A DNA stretch of 64,000 bases from an uncultured Candidatus Saccharibacteria bacterium (GTDB taxonomy: Bacteria > Patescibacteriota > Minisyncoccia > UBA6257 > 1-14-0-10-44-23): NCBI GenBank assembly GCA_964641225.1, contig CAZXKC010000005.1:32134-96133 (forward strand). Direction: 5' to 3'. The notes beneath the pieces are model-generated. The model made no database searches and was not told where the DNA came from. It was given only the letters and a program-made list of their open reading frames with translations. Both the position numbers and the translations under genes were made by a program. Below, in pieces: positions 2,065 through 45,681 of the stretch (position 1 is the stretch's first letter; each line of letters opens with the position of its first letter).

Positions 2065-2106
2065 TTCTAATACGTCTATCGTCCTCTAATACCTCTATTC
2101 CCTCTA
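2065..2106. repeat. Copy 1 of a ~42-nt repeated 3'-UTR element (TTCTAATACgTCTATcgtcCTCTAATACcTCTATTCCCTCTA)
   Basis: Seen directly in the sequence. It has an internal direct repeat TCTAATACNTCTAT and lies at/after the ndh stop codon. The second copy is at 12204-12244. Confidence 0.6.
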
Positions 2107-3390
2107 TCCCAATCTGTCGTTTCTCAAGAAAATCCAAAGTCCATGCAGCCAGTATCTCAAGGCGCGTACCGGTTTAAAGATCGAAAGCAGATAATTAAGC
2201 TCAACGATACCTTTCGTTATCCAGGCAAGAATTCCGGAGAAAATAATTGGTCCAAAACGTGCGATCGCGTATTTGCCACCGACGGGCAAGATATAGGGAT
2301 ACTCTCTCGGGTGGTAGCGCTTCATCTTAACGGTATGAATCAAATCTTGTTCTGCGAGGAGTTCTTGCAAGATGTTGTACGCAACAACTTTGCCTTGCTG
2401 GATGGCCGCGCGGGCAACGCCCGGCGTTGGCCGGCCGGTTTTTTTGTCCATAAATGCGACGGCGTCCCCTATTCCAAAAATTTTTGCGCCTAATTTTAAA
2501 TCCTCTGCCTCTGGCAGACTGACCATCTCTTCGGTTACCATCACGCGATTACCGGTCGGGTCTTTTTTCATGCCAAGCGTGCTCATCAAGTGATTTGGTG
2601 CAACGCCGCCTGTCCAGACTAAGATATCGTACTGAGCGCGTTTTCCGCTTTTTAAAATCACTTCTTTTTCCTCTGCTGATTGAATCAGCTCTCCTGTCAT
2701 TACTCCGACGCCAATGCGCGTGAGGCGGTTTTGCGCGCGCGAAATAATTCCCTTGCTAAACGCAGGAAGGATTGTCTGGCCGCCATCAATTATCGTAACT
2801 GAATCGGTACACTGGCCACGCGCAATGCGCGGGAGTTCTTTGAGTAAATTTTTAATTTCGCAGGCAAGCTCAACTCCGGTCGGGCCGCCTCCACCGATAA
2901 TCACTTTTACTGACGGGCGCTCCTCTTTTTCTACGCGCTGGATAATTTCTTCACGAATGTGCAGTGCATCGACAAATGTTTTAAGCGGCAGCGAGTGCTG
3001 TGCCAGCCCGGGAATATTAAAATAATTAACCTGACTACCAAGTGCGAGTACGAGCCAATCAAACGAAAGTGCTGTGCCGCTTTCAAAACGCAGCTCAGCC
3101 TTCATCGGATCGATCTGCGTAACCGTTGATTGAATAAATTCTATAGGCAGTCCGTCTATGATTTCAGTAATTGGCAGCGCGACAATTCGTTTAAGCTGCG
3201 AATTTGAGGCAATCATGTCTGTCGTCGTGGCAATTTCGTACAGCGTTGGCGTAAATGTGTGATAACTATTTTTATCAATTAAAATAACCTTGTATTGCTC
3301 CGTGAGGTTATTTTTTTTAATCCCCCGGGCGATGCTGCGTGCGGTTTGCAGGCCGCCAAAACCGGCGCCGAGGATGATGATTGATTTCAT
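2104..3390 (-). CDS. ndh: Type II NADH dehydrogenase / FAD-dependent pyridine nucleotide-disulfide oxidoreductase
   Basis: N-terminal GAGFGG dinucleotide-binding motif and a second GGGPTG Rossmann motif; 428 aa, typical NDH-2 architecture. Confidence 0.8.
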   Translation of the reverse strand: MKSIIILGAGFGGLQTARSIARGIKKNNLTEQYKVILIDKNSYHTFTPTLYEIATTTDMIASNSQLKRIVALPITEIIDGLPIEFIQSTVTQIDPMKAELRFESGTALSFDWLVLALGSQVNYFNIPGLAQHSLPLKTFVDALHIREEIIQRVEKEERPSVKVIIGGGGPTGVELACEIKNLLKELPRIARGQCTDSVTIIDGGQTILPAFSKGIISRAQNRLTRIGVGVMTGELIQSAEEKEVILKSGKRAQYDILVWTGGVAPNHLMSTLGMKKDPTGNRVMVTEEMVSLPEAEDLKLGAKIFGIGDAVAFMDKKTGRPTPGVARAAIQQGKVVAYNILQELLAEQDLIHTVKMKRYHPREYPYILPVGGKYAIARFGPIIFSGILAWITKGIVELNYLLSIFKPVRALRYWLHGLWIFLRNDRLG

Positions 3391-3520
3391 GCCCTTTAAT
3401 GTACTATGAGCGCGAATAGCGCACTATATTAAAAAATTGACGGTGTAGTCTGTATTACGATAACGATAGCTCAAGTGTAGCAGACTTTAGAAAAAAGCGC
3501 CGTCTGAATTTCGGCCAGAA

Positions 3521-3966
3521 ATTAGAAAGGGGTCCAGGCAGTGACGCGAGGACCCCTCGGGGGTGCCGCACGCGACTCATCAAGGTTGTGCGATGAGCGG
3601 CGGCGGGGAGAGAAGATTCTGGGTGTGAGGCGCTGTGTTGCGGGCGCAGCGCCTCACGGAGCTAAGTTGCGCGGACCGTCCGCGAACGGAGCTTGTGTGC
3701 AAGGAGGAGCCGCTTGCCTACCCTATGAGAGGAGATCTCGGGAGGTCGGGTGTGCTGCGCACTCCTCCTGCAGGAAACAGAAAGATTCAGGATGTGGGGG
3801 TCTCAGACCGGTCGGACCGCTTTGGGGCACGGCATTGTTGAATTTAGCCCTCGGAGGCCTAGACCAGCCGAGGGTCGGAATTCCAGTGCACTCAGTTTCC
3901 CGCGTGCTGTGCCATCTGCCGTTATACGGAACGATTAGGTCCTTTGTGCGAGACCCCCACGATTTC
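3521..3966. ncRNA. High-GC (~62%) non-coding island with extensive secondary structure; candidate structured RNA of unassigned class
   Basis: No credible ORF; those present are only R/P/G-rich artefacts. Hairpins include GTGAGGCGCTG...CAGCGCCTCAC (11 bp), GGGGTCC...GGACCCC and CCCTCGG...CCGAGGG. The two ends can pair (GGGGGTGCCGCAC / GTGCGAGACCCCC). There are short RNase-P-like strings (GGGGAGAGAAGAUUCUGGG, AACAGAAAG) but no complete P4. Confidence 0.3.
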
Positions 3967-4022
3967 TAAAGATCAGAATATAATTATACGCCTTTTTTAT
4001 AAGGCGTCAAGAAGCGCGATTT

Positions 4023-5159
4023 TTATCGAATTTCCGCGGCAAACTGTTTTTTTGTCTCTTCGATCACTTTATTTTGTAACGGCTCAATTTCTTCAACTTT
4101 GAGGGTTCGATCAGTGCTCCGATAGACGATTCGGTAGGCATAGCTGATTTTGTCCGCTCCGAACTTTTTCTCGTTTTCGTATTTATCAAGCAGTGTCACC
4201 TCTTCGGCCAAATCGCCGACAATGTCGCGGATTAGGTCAAAGTAGTTGTTTGGTACGAATGTCTTTGGTACGACAAACGAGATATCGCGCGTGATCGGCG
4301 GATACTTACTGACTGTTTTAAATTTGTTACCAAGTTTCAGTTGTTTTTTTACGCGTTCGTCAGCCGACCAGAAGAGACGGATGTCGGGCAAATCCATGCT
4401 GATGATTCCAAGTCGCTCGAGACCAAATCCAAAAGCCCAACCATTGTATCCTTCAATACCAAAATTTTTAAGTACTGATTTTTTCGGCATTCCTCCACCC
4501 AAAATTTCTATCCAACGATCCCCGACTTTAACCTCAACTTGCAGTGATGGATCTGTGTATGGAAATGTATCGTCCAAAAAGCGATATTCAACATCTTTGC
4601 CAAATAAATTTTCTACGATTTGCGAAAGGACTTTTTTTAGCTCATCAAGCGGCATAATGCCTTTGCTGTCCGGCTGTAAATACCAGGCACCAAATTGATG
4701 GAAGACATTCATGTGTCGACTGTCGATTTCATCCTTTCGGTATACCTTGCCATAGCAGACAGTGCCAACTGACTCGCCACGCGCAATCCGCTCTTGTATC
4801 TCCGGCTGATTCAAATAGTAATACCACATGACCGTATCATGTGTGCGCAAAATATTTTTTTCATCCACGTAGTAAGTATCAGACTTACTTCGTGCAGGAT
4901 GGTTTGGTGCGAAATCGAACAAGTCAAATGTGATAGAGGTCGGTACAATTTCTGGAATGACAATGTTGTCAAGATTTTTTAAAACATCTGTGGCTCGCGC
5001 CCGAGCAACGATTTCGTAGAGGGGGCTCTCCGGCGTCCGCGACAAATCCGGCATCGCCAAAAAGCGCTTCATGCGCAGGGCTTCGGGGTCGCTGCGACCT
5101 TCCAATACTTTTAACGCCTGTTTCTCTTCCGGTGCGTTTATGATGATTTCTTTGGGCAT
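4023..5159 (-). CDS. pheS: Phenylalanine--tRNA ligase, monomeric mitochondrial-like form (PheS catalytic core fused to C-terminal FDX-ACB anticodon-binding domain)
   Basis: Class II motif 2 (YRKDEIDSRHMNVFHQ) and motif 3 (AFGFGLERL) are present. There is no N-terminal coiled coil. An extra ~100 aa C-terminal has the FDX-ACB signature (DISFVVP...YAYRIVYRSTDRTL). Confidence 0.8.
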   Translation of the reverse strand: MPKEIIINAPEEKQALKVLEGRSDPEALRMKRFLAMPDLSRTPESPLYEIVARARATDVLKNLDNIVIPEIVPTSITFDLFDFAPNHPARSKSDTYYVDEKNILRTHDTVMWYYYLNQPEIQERIARGESVGTVCYGKVYRKDEIDSRHMNVFHQFGAWYLQPDSKGIMPLDELKKVLSQIVENLFGKDVEYRFLDDTFPYTDPSLQVEVKVGDRWIEILGGGMPKKSVLKNFGIEGYNGWAFGFGLERLGIISMDLPDIRLFWSADERVKKQLKLGNKFKTVSKYPPITRDISFVVPKTFVPNNYFDLIRDIVGDLAEEVTLLDKYENEKKFGADKISYAYRIVYRSTDRTLKVEEIEPLQNKVIEETKKQFAAEIR

Positions 5160-5169
5160 AAACTATATC

Positions 5170-5610
5170 TTAGTACCAATCAACTAGTTCAGTAAAGCGG
5201 ACATAAAAACCAAACGGATCAACTACTCTAAAATCTTTTTTATTCCAACGTTTAAGCGTAAGCGGTTGAGCGATTTGCTCGGGCAATAATTTTTCTTTTA
5301 TTGAATTCCAAAATTCTTCAACATCAGAAACGGGGATAGTTATTTCTACCTCATATCCTCTACGAGTACCGACTGGGAAATCTTTAAAGAATGAGTGTTG
5401 CGAAACTTTTTCTTTATCTCCGTAAAAGTTCAGATGCGTTTCGCCCAGGGCGTCAGCTCTTTTTAGAATCATATAACCAAGGTCGCTATTCCCGCCACTC
5501 TGTGGGTCATAGCGTAATTGCGTAAAACCAAATAATCCATAGAAATCACGGGCTTTTTGAAAGTCCGGAACATGAAGTTCCAGAACTAAATTATTGATAA
5601 CTTTATCCAT
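5170..5610 (-). CDS. VOC/glyoxalase-bleomycin resistance family protein
   Basis: 146-aa protein with paired beta-alpha-beta-beta-beta modules typical of the vicinal oxygen chelate fold. The assignment is from similarity only. Confidence 0.6.
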   Translation of the reverse strand: MDKVINNLVLELHVPDFQKARDFYGLFGFTQLRYDPQSGGNSDLGYMILKRADALGETHLNFYGDKEKVSQHSFFKDFPVGTRRGYEVEITIPVSDVEEFWNSIKEKLLPEQIAQPLTLKRWNKKDFRVVDPFGFYVRFTELVDWY

Positions 5611-5683
5611 GGTACCAGTAGTAAGAATCGAACTTACGTCTCGGCCTTATGAAAGCCTCGCTCTACCATTGAGCTATACTGGC
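5610..5683 (-). tRNA. tRNA-Met (anticodon CAT; could instead be the lysidine Ile2 species)
   Basis: Reverse complement folds as a cloverleaf: acceptor GCCAGTA/TACTGGT, D-arm GCTC-AATGGTA-GAGC, anticodon loop TTCATAA, T-arm GTAAG-TTCGATT-CTTAC, 3' CCA encoded. Confidence 0.85.
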
Positions 5684-5805
5684 ATCGCTCGGTTCTTTGT
5701 TTTCTGACAGGACTCACCCTTCGGGATTGCCATAAAACAAAGATCCTCTCTCCTACAATTACAAAAGATATACTACCGATTTTTGAGACTTATTGCAATG
5801 TTTGC

Positions 5806-6300
5806 TTGTGCGGGTGTAGACTGACTATGAACCGGCTGAAGTGGTGGCCGGAAGGAGGTGATCATGGCCTGGTTCGGAGGAGAGGGTTCTGGGGGTGGCT
5901 CCGCCACCTACAGACCTCGGAGGATGTTCGATGCCGGGTTCTCTGGTGCTCGCGGGATCAAGCCAGATCCTCTTCCTGCTGGGACCGGCAAGTCGCTGGT
6001 CGGAAGGGCGCACGTGTCCTACGCCTGCTCTGAAAGGCCCTGGGAGGGGCCGGCCGAGTGGGCTCGTCCCACGACGGTCGGCGACCCGCCCGACTGGCAC
6101 AGTCCGTAGGCAGGTCACTGCAGCGAGGGATGCCGGGCGCGCAACGCGCGCCCGGCACTTCGATTTATCCCCTTTGACGATTCTAGTATTTTGCTTTATA
6201 ATTACAACTTACCGGTCAACTGACAGCGGAGTAGGGAAACGGTATCCCGCCACGCTCATAACGTGGAGATAGGACGTTCGACTCGTCTCTCCGCAACCCT
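5806..6300. ncRNA. High-GC non-coding island with tRNA-like 3' end; candidate structured RNA (intron-containing tRNA or other) of unresolved identity
   Basis: No credible ORF. There is a perfect 11-bp hairpin GCCGGGCGCGC-aac-GCGCGCCCGGC. The 3' end has a T-arm-like GGACG-TTCGACT-CGTCT followed by CTCCGCA-A-CCC, which can pair with 5' TGCGGG at 5809-5814. Confidence 0.25.
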
Positions 6301-6436: not shown

Positions 6437-8977
6437 TTAGCCCCCTTTTTTCCCGAGTAATTTAGCGTATTTTTGGAACTGGTCGCCTTTTTCATTAAAG
6501 TCTTTCCAGAGGCTGTAGCTCGGCGAAGCCGTTGAAAGGAGGCAGATGCTCCCCTGCGGCGTATGTTTATACGCGAACGCAATTGCATCTTTCATTTTTT
6601 CTGTCCGGAAAATGTTTAAGTCGGTTGCTTCTACAAATAATCGATTGCCGGTATCCGGGAACAGTACAATATTTTTGATGCCAGCGACTCTAATTTTTGC
6701 CTCTAGTGTTTTAAAGTCATAGCCGCGATCTTCGCCGCCAAGGAAAATAGTTCCTACGTTTTTCAAAGAACGTAGCGCCATAATTGTTGATTCTGGAGTG
6801 GTCGAAATTGCGTCGTCGTAAAACGTGATGCCTTTAAATGTTCCGACTTTTTCAAGTCTGTGCGGGAGCGGTTTAAAGTTTAGTATTGCTTCTCGAATGA
6901 TTTCATCGGGCACAGAAAGCATTTTGGCGACGGTGACTGCAGCGCGAACATTATTGTAATTATGGACGCCGATTAGTGGCAGCTCGTCTTGGCTGACGGG
7001 AAGCTCGGTCGTAAATGGCACTGTTTTTGACCGCGCCTCTTTCGCCCACTCTACGAGGCGGTGATCTTCAGGGTTAAATACAAATGAGTCGTCGCGACGC
7101 TGGAATTTAATAATGTTCTTTTTAGCCAGATAATACGGCTCCTCTCCTTGATGATACGGCAGATGTTCCGGGAATAAATTTGAAATTACGGCGATGTTTG
7201 GTGAATAGCGGCTGTCGTCAAGCTGGTGGCTCGAAAGTTCTAATACAAAAATTTCCCGTGGATCAACCGAGCGCTTGAGTGCGCCAAGCATTGGTACGCC
7301 GATATTGCCAAGCAGGCTTACTTTTTTGCCGGCTTTTTTGAGAATTGCGTAAATGAGTGAGGAGGTTGTGCTTTTGCCTTTTGTGCCCGTGACACCAATG
7401 GTCAAATTGGAGATTTGTGAGAAAAAAAGATTGGTCGCCGTTGTGTACGGAATACTAACAAAGCGTTTTGGAATACCCGGCGTTTTGATGGCGATATCAA
7501 AGTCGGCCTGCATCTGCAGATAGTTTTTACTACGATTCTGGTCGGCAATTCCAAGTTTGAGTTTTGGGAATTTTTTCCGCATAAATTCCTGCGTCACTTT
7601 TCCTTCTTTGCCGTAGCCAAGAATAAGTGCGGTTTTCATACCCGAAAATCTAAACGGAGCAGGTATCAGAGGTGAATCTTGTGTTTTCATCACTCGAGCA
7701 ATCGTCTCTGGAGTTACGGCTAGCTGGTGTTCAAGCGTTTTAAAGACAATAGTTTTTCCATAAATTTTTCTACTCAAATGCAGTGCAGTCTGTACCTCTT
7801 CAAAGGTTCCCACGCAGTCGAATGGTTTGAGGTTACCCTGCCCTATTAAATCTTTAAAGAGCGGCACGAGTGTTTCATCTTCAAACAAATTTTTTCCAAA
7901 AATTGAGATGAGTTTTTTCTTTGGCAGCCATGGCGCTAGAATCGCAAAGACAAACGCACATTTTGCGCAGACGCCGCACCATTTAGTAGTAGACGGTAGT
8001 GAGTAGTCAGTAGACAGCGGGTTGATTTTTGCGACTGCATTGCAACTACTAAAGGCTGAGAAGTATTTTGGATAGGTGCTGAATAATTTTGCGATCCGCA
8101 ACTCGTAAAATGGTCTCAGAATCGAGAAGTAGGTTATGTTTGGCGTCACAAAATTGCGGATGTATTCCTGAAACAGCGTTTCAAATTCTTGCGACTTACT
8201 CCACTGATGATTAATAATTTCCCCTTTGTATTCTAAATTACCAAAGTTGCTGCTAAATTCGTTGGCAACAATTGTGTAGCGATAATCGTAGAGCGCCGCA
8301 GCAAATACGCCGATCCATGCTAACACTGCAGAAATTGGTATGTGTCCGTTAAAGCTATCGGGGTGTTTTTCGAAAATTTGTGGATCGAGCTCCCGGGAAA
8401 TGATCAGGCTTGGCAATTTGGTCGCCTTCATTACGCTCTGGGCTTGCAGGTTTGGTTTTTGTGTCTCGATTAAGATCGCCGTCGCATCTATTTTTTGCTC
8501 TTTAAGGAGCTCGACGGCAACCAGCGAGTCTTTGCCGCCACCGATGCCGATCAGCGAGCGATTACTGCGTTTAAAATCAACGGATTCCGGGCGATGTTCT
8601 GCCGAGCCTGGGAATAATGCTAGTACGCCCGGCTCAAGGTTGTTGCGATATAAAAATTCGCCCAGACCTTTTCTGTACACGGTGTTCCAAAATATGGCCT
8701 GCTCGGGCGAAATTGGTTGATTAAGTTTGATCTCCGGCGGACAGTAGAGTTTGTAATAGCTGATGCCGATAATCAGGTGTAGTCCCTGTAAAATATTTTC
8801 AAGCAATTGCGGCGGAATATCGGCAGAGATTTTTTGGTTGTATGGAAGCGTCAGTTTTTCGGTGAATATCAGCGGCTGGCGATTTGCAAAATGGATCGTG
8901 TAGTTAAATGAGGCCAGGCGCTTTTCCGGTTCAAATGAATAAAACGTGAATTCAAAAATTGTTGGTTTAAGCGTCAT
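6437..8977 (-). CDS. murD: Bifunctional protein: N-terminal QueC-like PP-loop ATP pyrophosphatase domain with CGxCxxC zinc ribbon, fused to C-terminal MurD-type UDP-N-acetylmuramoyl-L-alanine--glutamate ligase
   Basis: N-terminal half has an SGGxDS-like PP-loop (GIGGGKDS) and WCGVCAKC. C-terminal half has the MurD Rossmann N-domain, Mur ligase P-loop GVTGTKGKSTT and a DDAISTTPES-type C-domain; 846 aa. Confidence 0.8.
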   Translation of the reverse strand: MTLKPTIFEFTFYSFEPEKRLASFNYTIHFANRQPLIFTEKLTLPYNQKISADIPPQLLENILQGLHLIIGISYYKLYCPPEIKLNQPISPEQAIFWNTVYRKGLGEFLYRNNLEPGVLALFPGSAEHRPESVDFKRSNRSLIGIGGGKDSLVAVELLKEQKIDATAILIETQKPNLQAQSVMKATKLPSLIISRELDPQIFEKHPDSFNGHIPISAVLAWIGVFAAALYDYRYTIVANEFSSNFGNLEYKGEIINHQWSKSQEFETLFQEYIRNFVTPNITYFSILRPFYELRIAKLFSTYPKYFSAFSSCNAVAKINPLSTDYSLPSTTKWCGVCAKCAFVFAILAPWLPKKKLISIFGKNLFEDETLVPLFKDLIGQGNLKPFDCVGTFEEVQTALHLSRKIYGKTIVFKTLEHQLAVTPETIARVMKTQDSPLIPAPFRFSGMKTALILGYGKEGKVTQEFMRKKFPKLKLGIADQNRSKNYLQMQADFDIAIKTPGIPKRFVSIPYTTATNLFFSQISNLTIGVTGTKGKSTTSSLIYAILKKAGKKVSLLGNIGVPMLGALKRSVDPREIFVLELSSHQLDDSRYSPNIAVISNLFPEHLPYHQGEEPYYLAKKNIIKFQRRDDSFVFNPEDHRLVEWAKEARSKTVPFTTELPVSQDELPLIGVHNYNNVRAAVTVAKMLSVPDEIIREAILNFKPLPHRLEKVGTFKGITFYDDAISTTPESTIMALRSLKNVGTIFLGGEDRGYDFKTLEAKIRVAGIKNIVLFPDTGNRLFVEATDLNIFRTEKMKDAIAFAYKHTPQGSICLLSTASPSYSLWKDFNEKGDQFQKYAKLLGKKGG

Positions 8978-13249: not shown

Positions 13250-13440
13250 ATTTATTTCACATTTTTTGGGGAAGCAGGTGGAACTCCTGCACAGTACCGC
13301 TACGGTTATAGTCCGAGCGCCAGAATGTGATTAGTCTCACTGTCTTAATCCTCGAGTAAGGATGCCAGGCGGATTCGGTGCTCTCCCCAGAACCCGAAAC
13401 CGACCACCCCTCTATCTCGAGATGGGTGTTTTTATTTTTT
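13250..13440 (+). promoter_or_regulatory. Structured 5' leader (~190 nt) ending in an intrinsic terminator immediately upstream of the 13451 ORF; candidate riboswitch/attenuator of unassigned class
   Basis: An extended -10-like TGgTACACT lies upstream. The leader has GGGGAAGCAGG...ACGGUUAUAGUCCGAGCGCC...CCCGAAACCGAC motifs and ends in hairpin CACCCCTCTATCTCGAGATGGGTG (13405-13428) plus TTTTTATTTTTT. Confidence 0.35.
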
Positions 13441-13450
13441 ACTTTTAATC

Positions 13451-15718
13451 ATGCCGGAGTTACGACAACCACGATTTGAAGATGAGGGAGCTGCAACAAC
13501 TACTTCAGAGCGGCCTTTTAGTGGTGAAACACTCGAAGAAGAATTGGAGCGCTTAGAGCAGGAGAAAGCGCAAAGAGAATTAGAGGATCGTTTAGAGCAA
13601 GAACGACTTGAAGCAGAAGAACGTGCTGCTGAGGTTGCCGAAGAAGAGGAACGGATTCAGGCGGAAGATATCTCTCTTATCGAAGCGCTTGGTTCGGATA
13701 AGGTTGAAGTTCGATTTGTTGATCCGGCTGATAAGGCAACGTATCCGCAAGCCAGCTCAGATGGACCAAGCCACCAGGATAAGTCTGGGGTTCCCGTAGC
13801 AAGTCTGCCGCAACGTTTTATAGATGGTAAAAGTCAGAATCCAGACGGTACGTTTGTGGTTGATGAGCTCATGCGCTTAGGTAATGCATCGCCTGAGGGT
13901 CTTGCTCGCGCGCAAAAGCATGACAATGATCTCAATACTCTGCAGTATCATATTTCGGAACCCTTCAAGTCATTTAATGGTGATGGAAAAATGTGGAGGA
14001 CGATCACTCGCGTTAATGCTAACGGAGAAGAGGTTGCTCGAAATTATGAGATTGCGCTTCCTAAAAAGGAAGCAGAGGAAGATGATAATGGAGACCTGCT
14101 TCCGGGTGGTACCAGTGAAGGATTAGGAAATGCGCTCGATTCAGAGGACGATGAGGTGGTCGAAGATGGTTTGCTGGATCCTAATTCGGACGGGCTCGAA
14201 TCCTTGTGGGCCGCCCAAATTTCAGAGCTCGAAAAAAGTAAGGCCTTGAAAGATGCAGAGACTCAGCGAGTCACTGCGCTGAATGTTTCGCCTACTTTAA
14301 GTGCTACAGAGCCTAATGTTTCTGTCATAGCTGCGCAGATGCCGGTTTCTGAAATTTTTGCCACTGAGCCAGGCGTTTCGGCGCAGCCTGAGGCTATAAA
14401 GACACCATCGTTATTTACTGAATCCTTCGCCAGCGCACCATCTGCAGTCAATACGACCGAAAATTTTGCTCTAGAAACAGATTCATTCACTCTTGAGGTC
14501 GCAAACCTGTCTACGCCGGAAGATTCTGTTATTTCATCTCTGGAGCATTTTGCCAATACAGAACCAGTTGTTAGTCATGAGGCTGCGCCTGGGGCTATTA
14601 AGGTATCATCTCACGAGCTACCAGTAGCTCGTGGAGCAGTTGATCTTGCAGTTGAGGTATCTGCGACAACGAGTGAAATAATTTCAGAGCCGGTAGCTCT
14701 TGTTCCAGAAATTTTAAGTGAAGAGAGTGTCGCGGAAAATTCAATAGCAACAGATGCAGCTTCAGAGATTAGCAATGAGTTTACGATTAATTTTTCGTCA
14801 GGTGATTTATTTAAGCCTGAAATCGTCCTGGCTGAAACGATGACGAACGGCGCGCAGACGCATACAGAGACATTTGCGCAGCCCGTCTTTGAAACACCGA
14901 CGGTTGAATTTGATGTAGCTCCTGAGGAGGCTATTACAGAATCTGCACCTGTTACAGAGCTTCACGAGGACGCAATGCCCTCCATTGAATCAGCCGCAGA
15001 GGTTGCTTCTATTCTATTTCCTAAAGAAAAATCAGTGCCTGTTGAAGTCGTAGCTGTCGCGCCGGAAATTGCCCCCACTCAAGTTGTAGCTATCCCGGCC
15101 GCACCGAGAGAGGCAATTACGCTGACGTTTAAAAAAGATATCGCGCAACCGACTGTTGCGCGCATAGAAGCAACGAAACCTAAGTCCGTTGAGGTTTTGA
15201 AAGATGAAGTGCCAGCGGCTAAGGCAAAAGAAGTGGTGCCCCCCCCAGCAGAGAAGGCAGAACCAATTCGGCTTGTTCGGAATGAAGCAGCCCCTATTCC
15301 AGTTGCCCGTAAGGCTGAACAGAAACATGTTGATCAATCGCCGAATGTACCTTCGGTAGAGAAATCAGCAGGTAGAATTTTGAAATTTGAAGATGCTGTT
15401 GCTAATAAAGAGCGCCGCTCCCCTTCGCTAACACCTGAAATATTAAAAACACCCGTTCAGAAAATTTCGAATCCGCTTGTACGATCAAAAGTCCCAGAGG
15501 CTGTGCAGCGTCGACAGGAGCGTGAGGAGCTCCCGACTTTTGCTTCTTCAGTTGTTCGGGCTCGAGAGGTTGCGCGAGTTACCCAAGAGGTGCACAATTT
15601 CAAGCCGCGTAGTACGGCTGCTCTGTCTGACATAATCTCACAAGAAACTCGAGAGCGGCGTATTCTAGACATAGAAGACCTACCGGAGGTTGGAATCCGG
15701 ATGCTTCGTCGAGCCTAA
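13451..15718 (+). CDS. Large acidic low-complexity protein (755 aa), function unknown
   Basis: Long uninterrupted ORF in an AT-rich genome, E/A/S/T/V/P-rich with an N-terminal E/R coiled-coil-like region. No signal peptide or TM segment. Confidence 0.55.
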   Translation: MPELRQPRFEDEGAATTTSERPFSGETLEEELERLEQEKAQRELEDRLEQERLEAEERAAEVAEEEERIQAEDISLIEALGSDKVEVRFVDPADKATYPQASSDGPSHQDKSGVPVASLPQRFIDGKSQNPDGTFVVDELMRLGNASPEGLARAQKHDNDLNTLQYHISEPFKSFNGDGKMWRTITRVNANGEEVARNYEIALPKKEAEEDDNGDLLPGGTSEGLGNALDSEDDEVVEDGLLDPNSDGLESLWAAQISELEKSKALKDAETQRVTALNVSPTLSATEPNVSVIAAQMPVSEIFATEPGVSAQPEAIKTPSLFTESFASAPSAVNTTENFALETDSFTLEVANLSTPEDSVISSLEHFANTEPVVSHEAAPGAIKVSSHELPVARGAVDLAVEVSATTSEIISEPVALVPEILSEESVAENSIATDAASEISNEFTINFSSGDLFKPEIVLAETMTNGAQTHTETFAQPVFETPTVEFDVAPEEAITESAPVTELHEDAMPSIESAAEVASILFPKEKSVPVEVVAVAPEIAPTQVVAIPAAPREAITLTFKKDIAQPTVARIEATKPKSVEVLKDEVPAAKAKEVVPPPAEKAEPIRLVRNEAAPIPVARKAEQKHVDQSPNVPSVEKSAGRILKFEDAVANKERRSPSLTPEILKTPVQKISNPLVRSKVPEAVQRRQEREELPTFASSVVRAREVARVTQEVHNFKPRSTAALSDIISQETRERRILDIEDLPEVGIRMLRRA

Positions 15719-23027: not shown

Positions 23028-23384
23028 ATGTCCAAGTTTGTCACGCAGTCGGATCAGGAGGTCACGGTTACGGCACGGGTCGGCGAAACGGCGACTCTGC
23101 ATCTGAAGGGCGCCAGAATGACGGCCGCAATCTTGATGATGGCCTCGAACTTTCTTCGAGCCGGGTGCCCCGTGCAGTTGATCGGTCACGGATTTTGGGC
23201 TCCGAACGAAGATCGCGGAGACGAGCGTAGGGGTATTGAGGAGCAGTTCGGCGCGCTGGCTTGCGGCACCGAGGAGTTCTCGGTCACCGCGCGCGGACCT
23301 CAGGCAGGCACCAAGGGGCACCATTACGGCAGCTTCGTCGTGACGCGTCGTGGTGGTAGTTCCCACGAGCGGGAGATGGATTAA
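23028..23384 (+). CDS. High-GC (~64%) small hypothetical protein (118 aa) with strong SD; foreign cassette
   Basis: AAGGAGG lies 6 nt upstream of the ATG. GC is far above the neighbouring genes. A possible TTGACT -35 is at 22961. A terminator follows directly. Confidence 0.5.
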   Translation: MSKFVTQSDQEVTVTARVGETATLHLKGARMTAAILMMASNFLRAGCPVQLIGHGFWAPNEDRGDERRGIEEQFGALACGTEEFSVTARGPQAGTKGHHYGSFVVTRRGGSSHEREMD

Positions 23385-31791: not shown

Positions 31792-31972
31792 CGCACACAA
31801 CTCCTTCTGTTCCACGATTTCTAGCCTCCTAGAATATATGTGAAGCACGAATGTGCTTACTTTTTACATACACAAAATAAGCCAGATTTAAGTGGATACA
31901 TATTATAAACATATTTTAAAATTATTTGCAATAAATCGAGTTCTTAAGCTCCTGATACGAGAATTCTTTCTA

Positions 31973-44447: not shown

Positions 44448-45137
44448 ATGCCGATTGGACCGGACATCAACAAAGACCCCGACCCGCGTGACGCAGGGGC
44501 CGAGGTCATGGCGTACTGCATGTGGCCGGACAAGATCCGGAGCATGCGCCTACAGCCCGACGTCATCGTCGTCTACACGGGCGACGGGCGTCGGCTCGCC
44601 ACCGCCGCCATCCGCCGCGCTCGGGAGTACCCGAACATCCCCGTCTTCATCGTCGGGCCCGACAGCCTGATGGCGAGCGAGCTGGACGGCCAGATGAACG
44701 CCGAACACCTCAAGGCCGAGATGGTGGGGCATGGAATCGCGGCCGGCCGGATCATCACCGATTCGAGCCCGCAGAGCATCTACACCCACGGCCAGGCCAA
44801 CCAGGCGGCCGTGCGCTTCCGGGAGGAAACCTGGGCCACCATGCTGCTGATCACCAGTCAGCACCATGCGTACCGGGCGTTCATGATCACCCTGGGCGTC
44901 TTCAGCCGGGAAGGCCTGGCCGACCGGGTCGTCATCGTGCCAGACTCCGTCTACGAATTCGGTTTCGGCGAGCACCCGGCGGAATGGAGCGAGGAGTGGC
45001 GACGCCACACTCCCTGGGTCTGTCTCGTTCGGGACGGGATTCCAAAGGTCAGAAGCGGGCAGGAGAAGCACCCGCAGAACTTCGCGCAGAGCGACGTCGC
45101 ACAGCAGTACGTCAGACGCATCACCGCCAAGCTGTAA
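44448..45137 (+). CDS. High-GC (~65%) DUF218/YdcF-like family protein; foreign cassette
   Basis: 229 aa. The conserved DUF218 core is (V)IVVYTGDG...IPVFIVGPDS. It is followed by terminator AAGAGGAGCGG...CCGCTCCTCTT + TTTTTT (45148-45212). Confidence 0.55.
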   Translation: MPIGPDINKDPDPRDAGAEVMAYCMWPDKIRSMRLQPDVIVVYTGDGRRLATAAIRRAREYPNIPVFIVGPDSLMASELDGQMNAEHLKAEMVGHGIAAGRIITDSSPQSIYTHGQANQAAVRFREETWATMLLITSQHHAYRAFMITLGVFSREGLADRVVIVPDSVYEFGFGEHPAEWSEEWRRHTPWVCLVRDGIPKVRSGQEKHPQNFAQSDVAQQYVRRITAKL

Positions 45138-45253: not shown

Positions 45254-45441
45254 AGCACTCCGTCAAGTAGATCAGGATTTCCTATTTCACTAACAAGGGA
45301 GATTGTCTCATCGGCACGAAATGGACGTATCGTACGCCTGCCACTCAGGCGGCCTACGACGCAGCACGAGCCTCCGGCACACCGGGAACCGATCCGTTCG
45401 GTGACTGGGCGGAGAGATCCCTCCGATCATTCACCTACTGG

Positions 45442-45681
45442 GTGATCGTCCCGAACAAGTACCCGATGGACGAGATCGCCGCGACGAACCACCTCTTGAT
45501 CCCGAAGCGACCATTCTCGACCGAGGACGAGATGACGCCGGAGGAGCAGCAGGAACTGCGTGAGATCAAGCAGGTGCTGGCCCACGAGCGCGAGTACGAC
45601 TTCATCCTCGAGAACTTTCCCGTCCGACGATCGGTGATGCTGCGGTGGCACCTGCACCTAGTGACCGCCAAGGACACCTGA
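45442..45681 (+). CDS. High-GC HIT-like (histidine-triad-like) domain protein; 5' boundary uncertain (reading frame is open back to 45271 without an ATG/GTG)
   Basis: NHLLIPKRPFSTEDEMTPEEQQEL resembles the HIT xHxLVIPKxH...L..EE region. C-terminal RWHLHLV resembles a degenerate HxHxHxx triad. The track start is GTG at 45442. Confidence 0.4.
   Translation: MIVPNKYPMDEIAATNHLLIPKRPFSTEDEMTPEEQQELREIKQVLAHEREYDFILENFPVRRSVMLRWHLHLVTAKDT

Follow-up and report, generated by a model that had tools for sequence, protein, structure and literature searches.

What does the GC-rich island between the pheS-type and ndh-like genes of an uncultured Candidatus Saccharibacteria bacterium encode, if it encodes anything at all? 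The island (positions 3521–3966, 446 bases) lies between the stop codon of pheS and the start codon of ndh, in a stretch of 64,000 nucleotides of contig CAZXKC010000005.1 (GenBank assembly GCA_964641225.1) that was analyzed at its full length and is referred to here as the window. We tentatively favor the reading that it is a recently acquired GC-rich insert carrying a predicted orphan, non-coding transcript of approximately 460 nt on the minus strand. This reading is based on structure beyond that expected from composition, a rare promoter match, a terminator-like hairpin on the same strand and the non-coding character of the island; by analogy, it also draws on other GC-rich islands of the window that have promoter-like or terminator-like signals in matching orientation. 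Transcription, its strand, the ends of the transcript and any function are what we infer.

The GC content of the island is 61.2% (G 35.4% and C 25.8% on the plus strand) compared to 45.3% for the whole window, and peaks at 0.64 in 200-nt windows. This agrees with a first-pass annotation, made by a model from the sequence alone, which had placed an island of approximately 62% GC between ndh and pheS. Both neighbors have Pfam domains:

2104–3390, minus strand: ndh-like gene, 428 aa, with a Pyr_redox_2 domain
4023–5159, minus strand: PheS-type gene, 378 aa, with tRNA-synt_2d and FDX-ACB domains (stop codon at 4023–4025)

The complete spacer between the two genes measures 632 nt, against a median intergenic gap crudely estimated at 84 nt. 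Logan's independent assembly of SRR14271332 reproduces window positions 3461–5637 (2177 bases) at 100% identity, and the junctions of the island are therefore real and do not reflect a chimera of the analyzed contig.

The island had been described at first pass as free of open reading frames (ORFs), with no plausible coding frame. Taken literally the first part is wrong, as one ORF spans the island:

3541–3969, plus strand: ORF of 142 aa with a GTG start codon, judged spurious from the ORF list, shuffles, periodicity and protein searches

The second part stands. A stop-free frame of this length arises in 12.7% of dinucleotide shuffles (P = 0.13). A period-3 signal is absent from the island (P = 0.43) and present (P ≤ 0.013) in six of the six genes tested, comprising ndh, pheS and those of four other GC-rich islands. 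GC at the three codon positions of the ORF is flat (0.65/0.59/0.59), compared to third-position values (GC3) of 0.79–0.87 in foreign-looking genes of the window. The translation contains no Pfam domain, and searches of 5.8 billion clustered proteins and of 1.84 billion representatives matched it only to its own Logan record. The island is non-coding, and is treated as such because of the usual ORF length, the lack of periodicity, the flat codon-position GC and the absence of homologues.

The predicted folding of the island is considerably stronger than that of shuffled sequence. For positions 3515–3975, the z-score of the minimum free energy (MFE) is -3.66 for the plus strand and -7.55 for the minus strand; for positions 3521–3966, in separate shuffles, it is -5.0 and -6.3, respectively. 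Five other high-GC islands of the window have z-scores of -0.4 to -2.7, and as these fold far less well, GC content does not account for the excess structure. The earlier impression of a hairpin-rich element with long perfect stems and pairable ends was borne out, with helices of 11 and 12 bp and with ends that pair at 3559–3609/3897–3958 in the plus-strand fold and at 3794–3804/3950–3960 in the minus-strand fold. The predicted elements are the following:

3794–3960, minus strand: domain closed by a long-range perfect 11-bp helix, GUGGGGGUCUC/GAGACCCCCAC (3794–3804/3950–3960), in both the MFE and the centroid structure; it encloses nested helices, including a hairpin at 3840–3883
3840–3883, minus strand: this nested hairpin, 3848–3854/3868–3874 inside 3840–3844/3879–3883
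3698–3772, minus strand: domain closed by a 12-bp helix, UGCAGGAGGAG(U)/(G)CUCCUCCUUGCA (3698–3710/3761–3772)
3659–3694, minus strand: nested hairpin AGCU...CGCGGA-CGG-UCCGCG...AGCU, 3670–3675/3679–3684 inside 3660–3663/3690–3693
3625–3657, minus strand: hairpin of 11 perfect Watson-Crick pairs (3625–3635/3647–3657), -22.5 kcal/mol
3575–3598, minus strand: 8-bp hairpin (3575–3582/3591–3598), -13.4 kcal/mol compared to -11.8 kcal/mol on the plus strand
3616–3628, plus strand: copy 1 of an internal quasi-palindromic motif, AAGATTCTGGGTGTGAGG starting at 3613, from repeat search and fold
3785–3797, plus strand: copy 2 of this motif, AAGATTCAGGATGTGGGG starting at 3782, from repeat search and fold

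The hairpin at 3625–3657 has a z-score of about -4.5 to -5, and on the plus strand it extends through G-U pairs to 16 pairs (-28.2 kcal/mol). The two terminal pairs of the hairpin at 3575–3598 are G-U on the minus strand only. Both copies of the internal motif are able to pair with one another on the plus strand; as a repeat they score weakly (z about 2), and the search pattern was defined after they had been seen. A resemblance of the internal motif to a second GC-rich island in the window was likewise based on a pattern derived afterwards, and was rejected as not significant. Overall, these thermodynamic predictions leave the choice of strand ambiguous.

Signals for expression were identified in consensus scans and by folding of the flanks:

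4010–3983, minus strand: sigma-70-type promoter match TTGACG-16-TATAAT (11/12), facing the island, with a predicted start near 3976
3988–4007, minus strand: terminator-like hairpin of pheS, ACGCCUU/AAGGCGU followed by AUAAUUAUAUUCU (-10 kcal/mol, z -3.2)
3957–3978, minus strand: 5' leader motif from fold and motif search, with the palindrome UUCUGA/UUAGAA and the 12-mer TAGAAATCGTGG (3968–3957)
3558–3515, minus strand: terminator-like element, a 9-bp GC-rich hairpin GAGGGGUCC...GGACCCCUU (3527–3535/3550–3558) followed by UUUCUAAUUUCU (-20.2 kcal/mol)
3391–3514, minus strand: AT-rich stretch separating the island from the ndh start codon, with promoter matches of at most 8/12

Sigma-70 sites of at least 11/12 occur six times in the window (1.7 expected). 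All six are intergenic and each is aimed at a downstream gene or RNA unit; apart from the one facing the island, they face adk, tRNA-Met and two genes of GC-rich cassettes, while one is a further intergenic site. The pheS terminator-like hairpin is situated inside the spacer of the 4010–3983 promoter match. The hairpin at 3558–3515 was passed over by the consensus terminator scan because its loop exceeds 8 nt. On the plus strand of the island, the consensus scans identified neither a promoter nor a terminator. The expression signals thus point to the minus strand, which is also that of pheS and ndh, and at the level of consensus matches the island has what is expected of an independent small RNA (sRNA) or other non-coding RNA gene, namely a promoter and a terminator of its own on one strand. 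As no promoter match better than 8/12 precedes ndh, read-through from the island into ndh is possible.

The 12-mer TAGAAATCGTGG of the leader has an exact second copy at 31823–31812 (minus strand), in the 5' untranslated region of the gene in another GC-rich island (island 4, below) and in the same relative orientation. Both copies have ATATTCT 6–7 nt upstream and are located at the transcribed 5' edge of their islands. By chance alone, a query of 490 nt should match the window at approximately 3.7 12-mers, and the shared sequence may be a leader or operator or be due to chance; its position is only suggestive. The extended motif gave only chance matches in relatives and in viral and metagenome contigs. 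One of these, in metagenome contig L100, lies in AT-rich, eukaryote-like DNA where ATTAGAAATCGTGGT occurs twice, approximately 235 nt apart (2746–2760 and 2981–2996); given this context, it was discarded as an unrelated repeat matching the junction motif by chance.

Could the island correspond to a known RNA? The first-pass annotation had proposed a large housekeeping RNA, either RNase P RNA, transfer-messenger RNA (tmRNA) or an intron or insertion of the type found in the Candidate Phyla Radiation (CPR), while noting that it saw no complete P4 pair and no tRNA-like end. The latter remark was correct and the proposal was not supported. At the gathering score, Rfam 15 has no match in the island; in the whole window it identifies five tRNAs and one AdoCbl-II riboswitch. 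ARAGORN likewise reports five tRNAs in the window and no tmRNA. A permissive Rfam search (E ≤ 10, permissive filters, a 661-nt query covering 3380–4040) returned just noise and a sub-threshold match to BjrC68 (18.6 bits, gathering score 39), an unrelated sRNA model of which only the terminator part aligned, on the terminal hairpin of the island and on the minus strand. The families that had been put forward for comparison (RNase P, tmRNA, introns, GOLLD, ROOL and HEARO) gave no match at threshold and none of relevance at E ≤ 10. In addition, we scanned both strands of 3401–4050 for diagnostic motifs, allowing 2–3 mismatches for the conserved region (CR) motifs of RNase P RNA and up to 2 for the T-loop. 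CR-I (GAGGAAAGUCC), CR-V (ACAGAAnnnGGCUUA) and CR-IV are absent, as are the T-loop GGUUCGAnUCC, the 5' end of tmRNA, the T-box sequence and the core of group II intron domain 5 (D5).

RNase P RNA was consequently rejected, with no covariance-model match, no CR motifs and no conservation in relatives. The pairs GAGAGAAG-AUUCUGGGU and ACAGAAAG-AUUCAGGAU, considered as strands of P4, have the wrong topology, no S-domain and no model score. RNase P RNA (RF00010, RF00011) and the island are alike in size class (approximately 350–450 nt), a G-rich strand, many helices and pairable ends, but the island lacks the model match, the P4 and CR motifs, the right order of helices and the conservation in relatives. 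A tmRNA (RF00023 and its permuted forms) would be similar in size class and in its high degree of structure; it was rejected as there is no tRNA-like domain, no T-loop, no tag frame by ARAGORN and no Rfam match. A group I or group II intron or a CPR rRNA insertion was excluded by the lack of an Rfam match, the intergenic site, at which no rRNA or tRNA gene is interrupted, and the lack of a D5-like core. Members of GOLLD, ROOL, HEARO, OLE and raiA resemble the island as large, highly structured, non-coding stand-alone units that may reside on mobile or acquired DNA. These families are widely conserved, whereas the island is not, and none of them is among the Rfam matches at E ≤ 10.

Comparison with relatives indicates that the island is an insert. 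The window belongs to a Paceibacterota-like genome of the Patescibacteria (CPR). The PheS-type protein shares 75–76% identity with proteins from metagenome-assembled genomes (MAGs) of Paceibacterota/Parcubacteria and 81–86% with its closest counterparts in a large protein collection. Its nearest relatives keep the gene order PheS-ndh-adk-map, while the PheS-ndh spacer differs by lineage; in most of the more distant relatives it is shorter than 100 nt. Where PheS is 81–86% identical, the spacer is 37 nt or consists of unrelated sequence, and in none of these loci, listed here by their L numbers, does it resemble the island:

L084 and L087: spacer of 37 nt after PheS
L086: spacer of about 220 nt after PheS
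L082, identical to L089: spacer of 391 nt, including a promoter-to-terminator unit of approximately 200 nt; ndh inverted in L082
L083 and L085: spacer of approximately 650 nt, 85% identical between the two; ndh inverted in L083
L094 and L096: again different tails after PheS

It is this short or unrelated filler in relatives on which the insert status of the island is based, and it also argues against a housekeeping RNA, as an essential RNA should be recognizable in relatives. Relative to PheS, the ndh-like gene runs in the opposite direction in L082 (9532–10827) and L083 (3599–4936) and in the same direction in the window, L084 and L086. As its orientation varies in this way, the PheS-ndh spacer is a rearrangement hot spot. 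Searches with blastn and nhmmer found no match to the island in 80 PheS loci from GTDB genomes or in nine closer PheS loci, and no island-like sequence or structure occurs among 96 related loci. A covariance model of 3790–3966 recovered only itself from the window and 1.3 Mb of related loci. The island ORF, used as degenerate DNA probes, had no match in IMG/VR and JGI metagenomes, and blastn of the island against phages and plasmids was negative as well.

Some relatives have other candidate RNAs at this site. L083 2975–3295 and L085 4535–4850 (PheS 84% identical) contain a structured RNA candidate of approximately 270 nt on the PheS strand, with an extended -10 promoter, a strong terminator and no Rfam match. 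Between the two loci, 90 consensus pairs include none that is broken, 11 with one-sided changes and 2 with compensatory changes, which fits a real lineage-specific RNA. This candidate was considered as a diverged orthologue of the island and rejected, as its nhmmer profile matches only those two loci and nothing in the window. A second unit of approximately 170–200 nt near L083 3340–3590, also without Rfam match, runs from a TTGACA..TATATT promoter to a terminator and has the closing stem GGGAGTGAGG/CCTCACTCCC. In L082 (9141–9531; identical in L089, 2669–2987) there is an unrelated non-coding unit of approximately 200 nt, with the promoter TTGACT..TAATACT, the closing stem GGGGTGGG/CCCACACCCC and the terminator GCGCCCAGCGCGC followed by a T-run.

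The favored reading can be formulated as follows. Transcription would start near 3976, from the near-consensus promoter right after the pheS terminator, and the transcript would cross approximately 440 nt of densely base-paired non-coding sequence. Most transcription would stop at the GC-rich hairpin and U-tract at 3558–3515, while residual read-through would enter ndh, for which no good separate promoter is evident. This would yield a structured RNA of approximately 460 nt, an orphan specific to its lineage and not a housekeeping ribozyme. Most likely it would act as a regulatory or decoy RNA, or would simply be a passenger that is transcribed and, in addition, serves to insulate pheS from ndh.

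Several observations weigh against this reading. The loop of the terminator-like hairpin is 14 nt and its U-tract is interrupted, and the promoter match, which lies in AT-rich DNA and coincides in part with the pheS terminator, may have arisen by chance. The plus strand is G-rich (G 35%, C 26%) and gains several helices extended by G-U pairs, which would be a better fit to a plus-strand RNA. The long, near-perfect helices, with no GNRA or UNCG tetraloops, look more like young DNA palindromes than like an evolved RNA. The GC content of the island exceeds that of the genome's own tRNAs (0.46–0.57), which argues for a foreign origin over a native function. Finally, no homologue was found anywhere, which leaves neither covariation nor a sign of selection.

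Screens for structured non-coding RNAs select GC-rich intergenic regions (GC-IGRs) (Stav et al., 2019, PMC6429828; Brewer et al., 2021, PMC8632094; Narunsky et al., 2024, PMC11109978). With its long spacer (632 nt vs. a median of 84 nt), non-coding sequence and strong folding in an AT-richer genome, the island has the exact signature of the unassigned long candidates from such screens. GC-IGR candidates become motifs once homologues covary, whereas the island has no homologue in any collection searched and stays a single-sequence candidate. A literature search on structured intergenic RNAs of the CPR retrieved nothing.

The analogy with other GC-rich islands refers to the following features:

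23028–23384, plus strand: island 3, small orphan gene with codon-position bias
31791–31453, minus strand: island 4, gene of 113 aa with codon-position bias
44448–45137, plus strand: island 5, DUF218 gene with codon-position bias and a Pfam match
45313–45681, plus strand: island 6, small orphan gene with codon-position bias

These genes stand out by a GC3 of 0.79–0.87 or a distinct period-3 signal and have few relatives, if any; DUF218 is the sole Pfam domain among them. Promoter matches in matching orientation are found at island 5 (12/12), island 6 (11/12) and island 4 (10/12), and terminators were called in matching orientation at islands 3 and 6. Islands 3–6 look like recent horizontal acquisitions, and the genome carries several small insertions that are still GC-rich and foreign in composition. 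Neither at the DNA nor at the protein level is the island at 3521–3966 significantly similar to them or to the remaining GC-rich islands.

The main alternative is that the island is inert GC-rich DNA left over from a horizontal transfer, such as palindromic intergenic sequence of a GC-rich donor that has not yet drifted toward AT, and that any transcription is incidental. We consider this a real possibility, if a lesser one. It is consistent with the GC content of 61% compared to 45%, with the other un-ameliorated GC-rich insertions in the window and with near-perfect stems that lack typical RNA loop motifs. The lack of an Rfam match and of conservation in relatives, both named at first pass as signs against a structured RNA, were indeed found, and neither the relatives nor any of the collections searched contain the element. 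What inert DNA does not readily explain is that the folding z-scores are far beyond those of other foreign islands, and that the island is precisely flanked, on a single strand, by a rare near-consensus promoter match and a terminator-like hairpin; moreover, the donor sequence was not found.

Alternatively, the island may be a long structured 5' leader or attenuator of the ndh mRNA, in which the 4010–3983 promoter serves ndh and the hairpin at 3558–3527 is a conditional terminator. Promoter matches between the island and the ndh ATG (3390) reach at most 8/12, ndh and the island are on the same strand, and the terminator-like hairpin lies approximately 125 nt upstream of the start codon. We nevertheless regard this as unlikely, as relatives have ndh without the island, after spacers of 37–220 nt or in inverted orientation, riboswitch and T-box models gave no match, no alternative fold that would obviously act as an antiterminator was identified, and a leader of approximately 590 nt would be unusually long.

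A more far-reaching reading would make the island the first example of a new class of structured RNAs of approximately 450 nt, carried on small GC-rich cassettes in spacers of Paceibacterota and sharing the TAGAAATCGTGG leader, with the spacer downstream of PheS as a landing pad. Relatives have other promoter-to-terminator non-coding units at this spacer, one of them with compensatory changes; we consider this reading speculative and improbable.

Less probable still is a non-autonomous mobile element, such as a miniature inverted-repeat transposable element (MITE) or a cluster of palindromic repeats, inserted between pheS and ndh. Palindromic repeats such as REP/BIME, ERIC, Correia and RPE are multicopy elements of 30–200 bp. 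They and MITEs share with the island an intergenic location, near-perfect hairpins, ends resembling inverted repeats and presence or absence among relatives. The island has imperfect terminal inverted repeats (TTAGAAA..GGGGTC at 3522–3534 and the complement at 3950–3970), is an insertion relative to relatives and occupies a spacer that is a variable hot spot. Unlike these elements, it is a single 446-bp copy in the sequence examined: there is one copy in 64 kb, and blastn, nhmmer and the covariance model found none in related loci totaling 1.3 Mb. An indel of 4–5 nt breaks the inverted repeats, no clear target-site duplication is seen, and there is no transposase nearby.

We give very little credence to an orphan protein-coding gene, namely the 142-aa plus-strand ORF. 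This ORF covers the island and was also called by the gene caller on the Logan contig, a weak GAAAGGGG is present 9 nt upstream of its GTG start, and other GC-rich islands are small orphan genes; it is contradicted by the missing period-3 signal, the flat codon-position GC and the ordinary length for its composition described above, by an Arg/Gly/Cys-rich translation without homologue in 1.84 billion representatives, and by the failure to find a promoter or terminator on the plus strand.

An extremely diverged housekeeping RNA on the plus strand, such as an aberrant CPR RNase P RNA, is hardly credible: the strand is G-rich, the purine tracts GAGAGAAG and ACAGAAAG precede a possible helix (3616–3624/3785–3793) in a manner superficially like CR-I and CR-V flanking P4, and CPR RNase P RNAs are known to slip below default thresholds (10 of 35 circular CPR genomes required lowered thresholds; Lui et al., 2021, PMC8172020), but neither RNaseP_bact_a nor RNaseP_bact_b matches the 661-nt query even at E ≤ 10, the CR-I, CR-IV and CR-V motifs are absent with 2–3 mismatches, two extra hairpin domains follow the would-be 3' strand of P4 with no S-domain, close relatives lack the sequence at the pheS locus and its flanks, and no plus-strand promoter was found.

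The window contains further features of note. A second GC-rich island at 5800–6165 (GC 0.61–0.69) lies between tRNA-Met genes at 5610–5683 (minus strand) and 6226–6295 (plus strand); periodicity classes it as non-coding (P = 0.69), its folding is only weak (z about -2.5) and it has no Rfam match. Just before an ATG at 5864 it contains a perfect 12-nt Shine-Dalgarno-like sequence, AAGGAGGTGATC, which precedes an 81-aa ORF without homologue, and the island terminates in a 12-bp terminator hairpin (6131–6157). An ORF of 846 aa (6437–8977, minus strand) has Mur ligase domains only in residues 529–815, in its C-terminal half; relatives have a 443-aa MurD-like protein in its place, and a fusion or an over-long ORF call is possible. 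The AdoCbl-II riboswitch (13257–13330, plus strand, 56 bits) is located upstream of a 755-aa ORF (13451–15718), and the same riboswitch class is also present in relatives L082 and L009. The phenylalanyl-tRNA synthetase (PheRS) at 4023–5159 (minus strand) is of the monomeric type, with the class II catalytic core and the C-terminal FDX-ACB anticodon-binding domain in one chain, an architecture that mitochondrial PheRS also has. Similar proteins number more than 5000 at E ≤ 1e-100, and those with a source name are from Patescibacteria MAGs.

For the annotation of CPR genomes, our analysis implies that a model match or conservation is needed before a GC-rich, hairpin-rich and ORF-poor island is identified as rnpB or ssrA, and the several GC-rich insertions of this window are mostly small orphan genes. 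If the island is transcribed and functional, it would represent a rare large, lineage-specific structured RNA in bacteria of the CPR, whose non-coding RNA repertoire is almost unexplored, and it would indicate that reduced CPR genomes still acquire and express small foreign cassettes.

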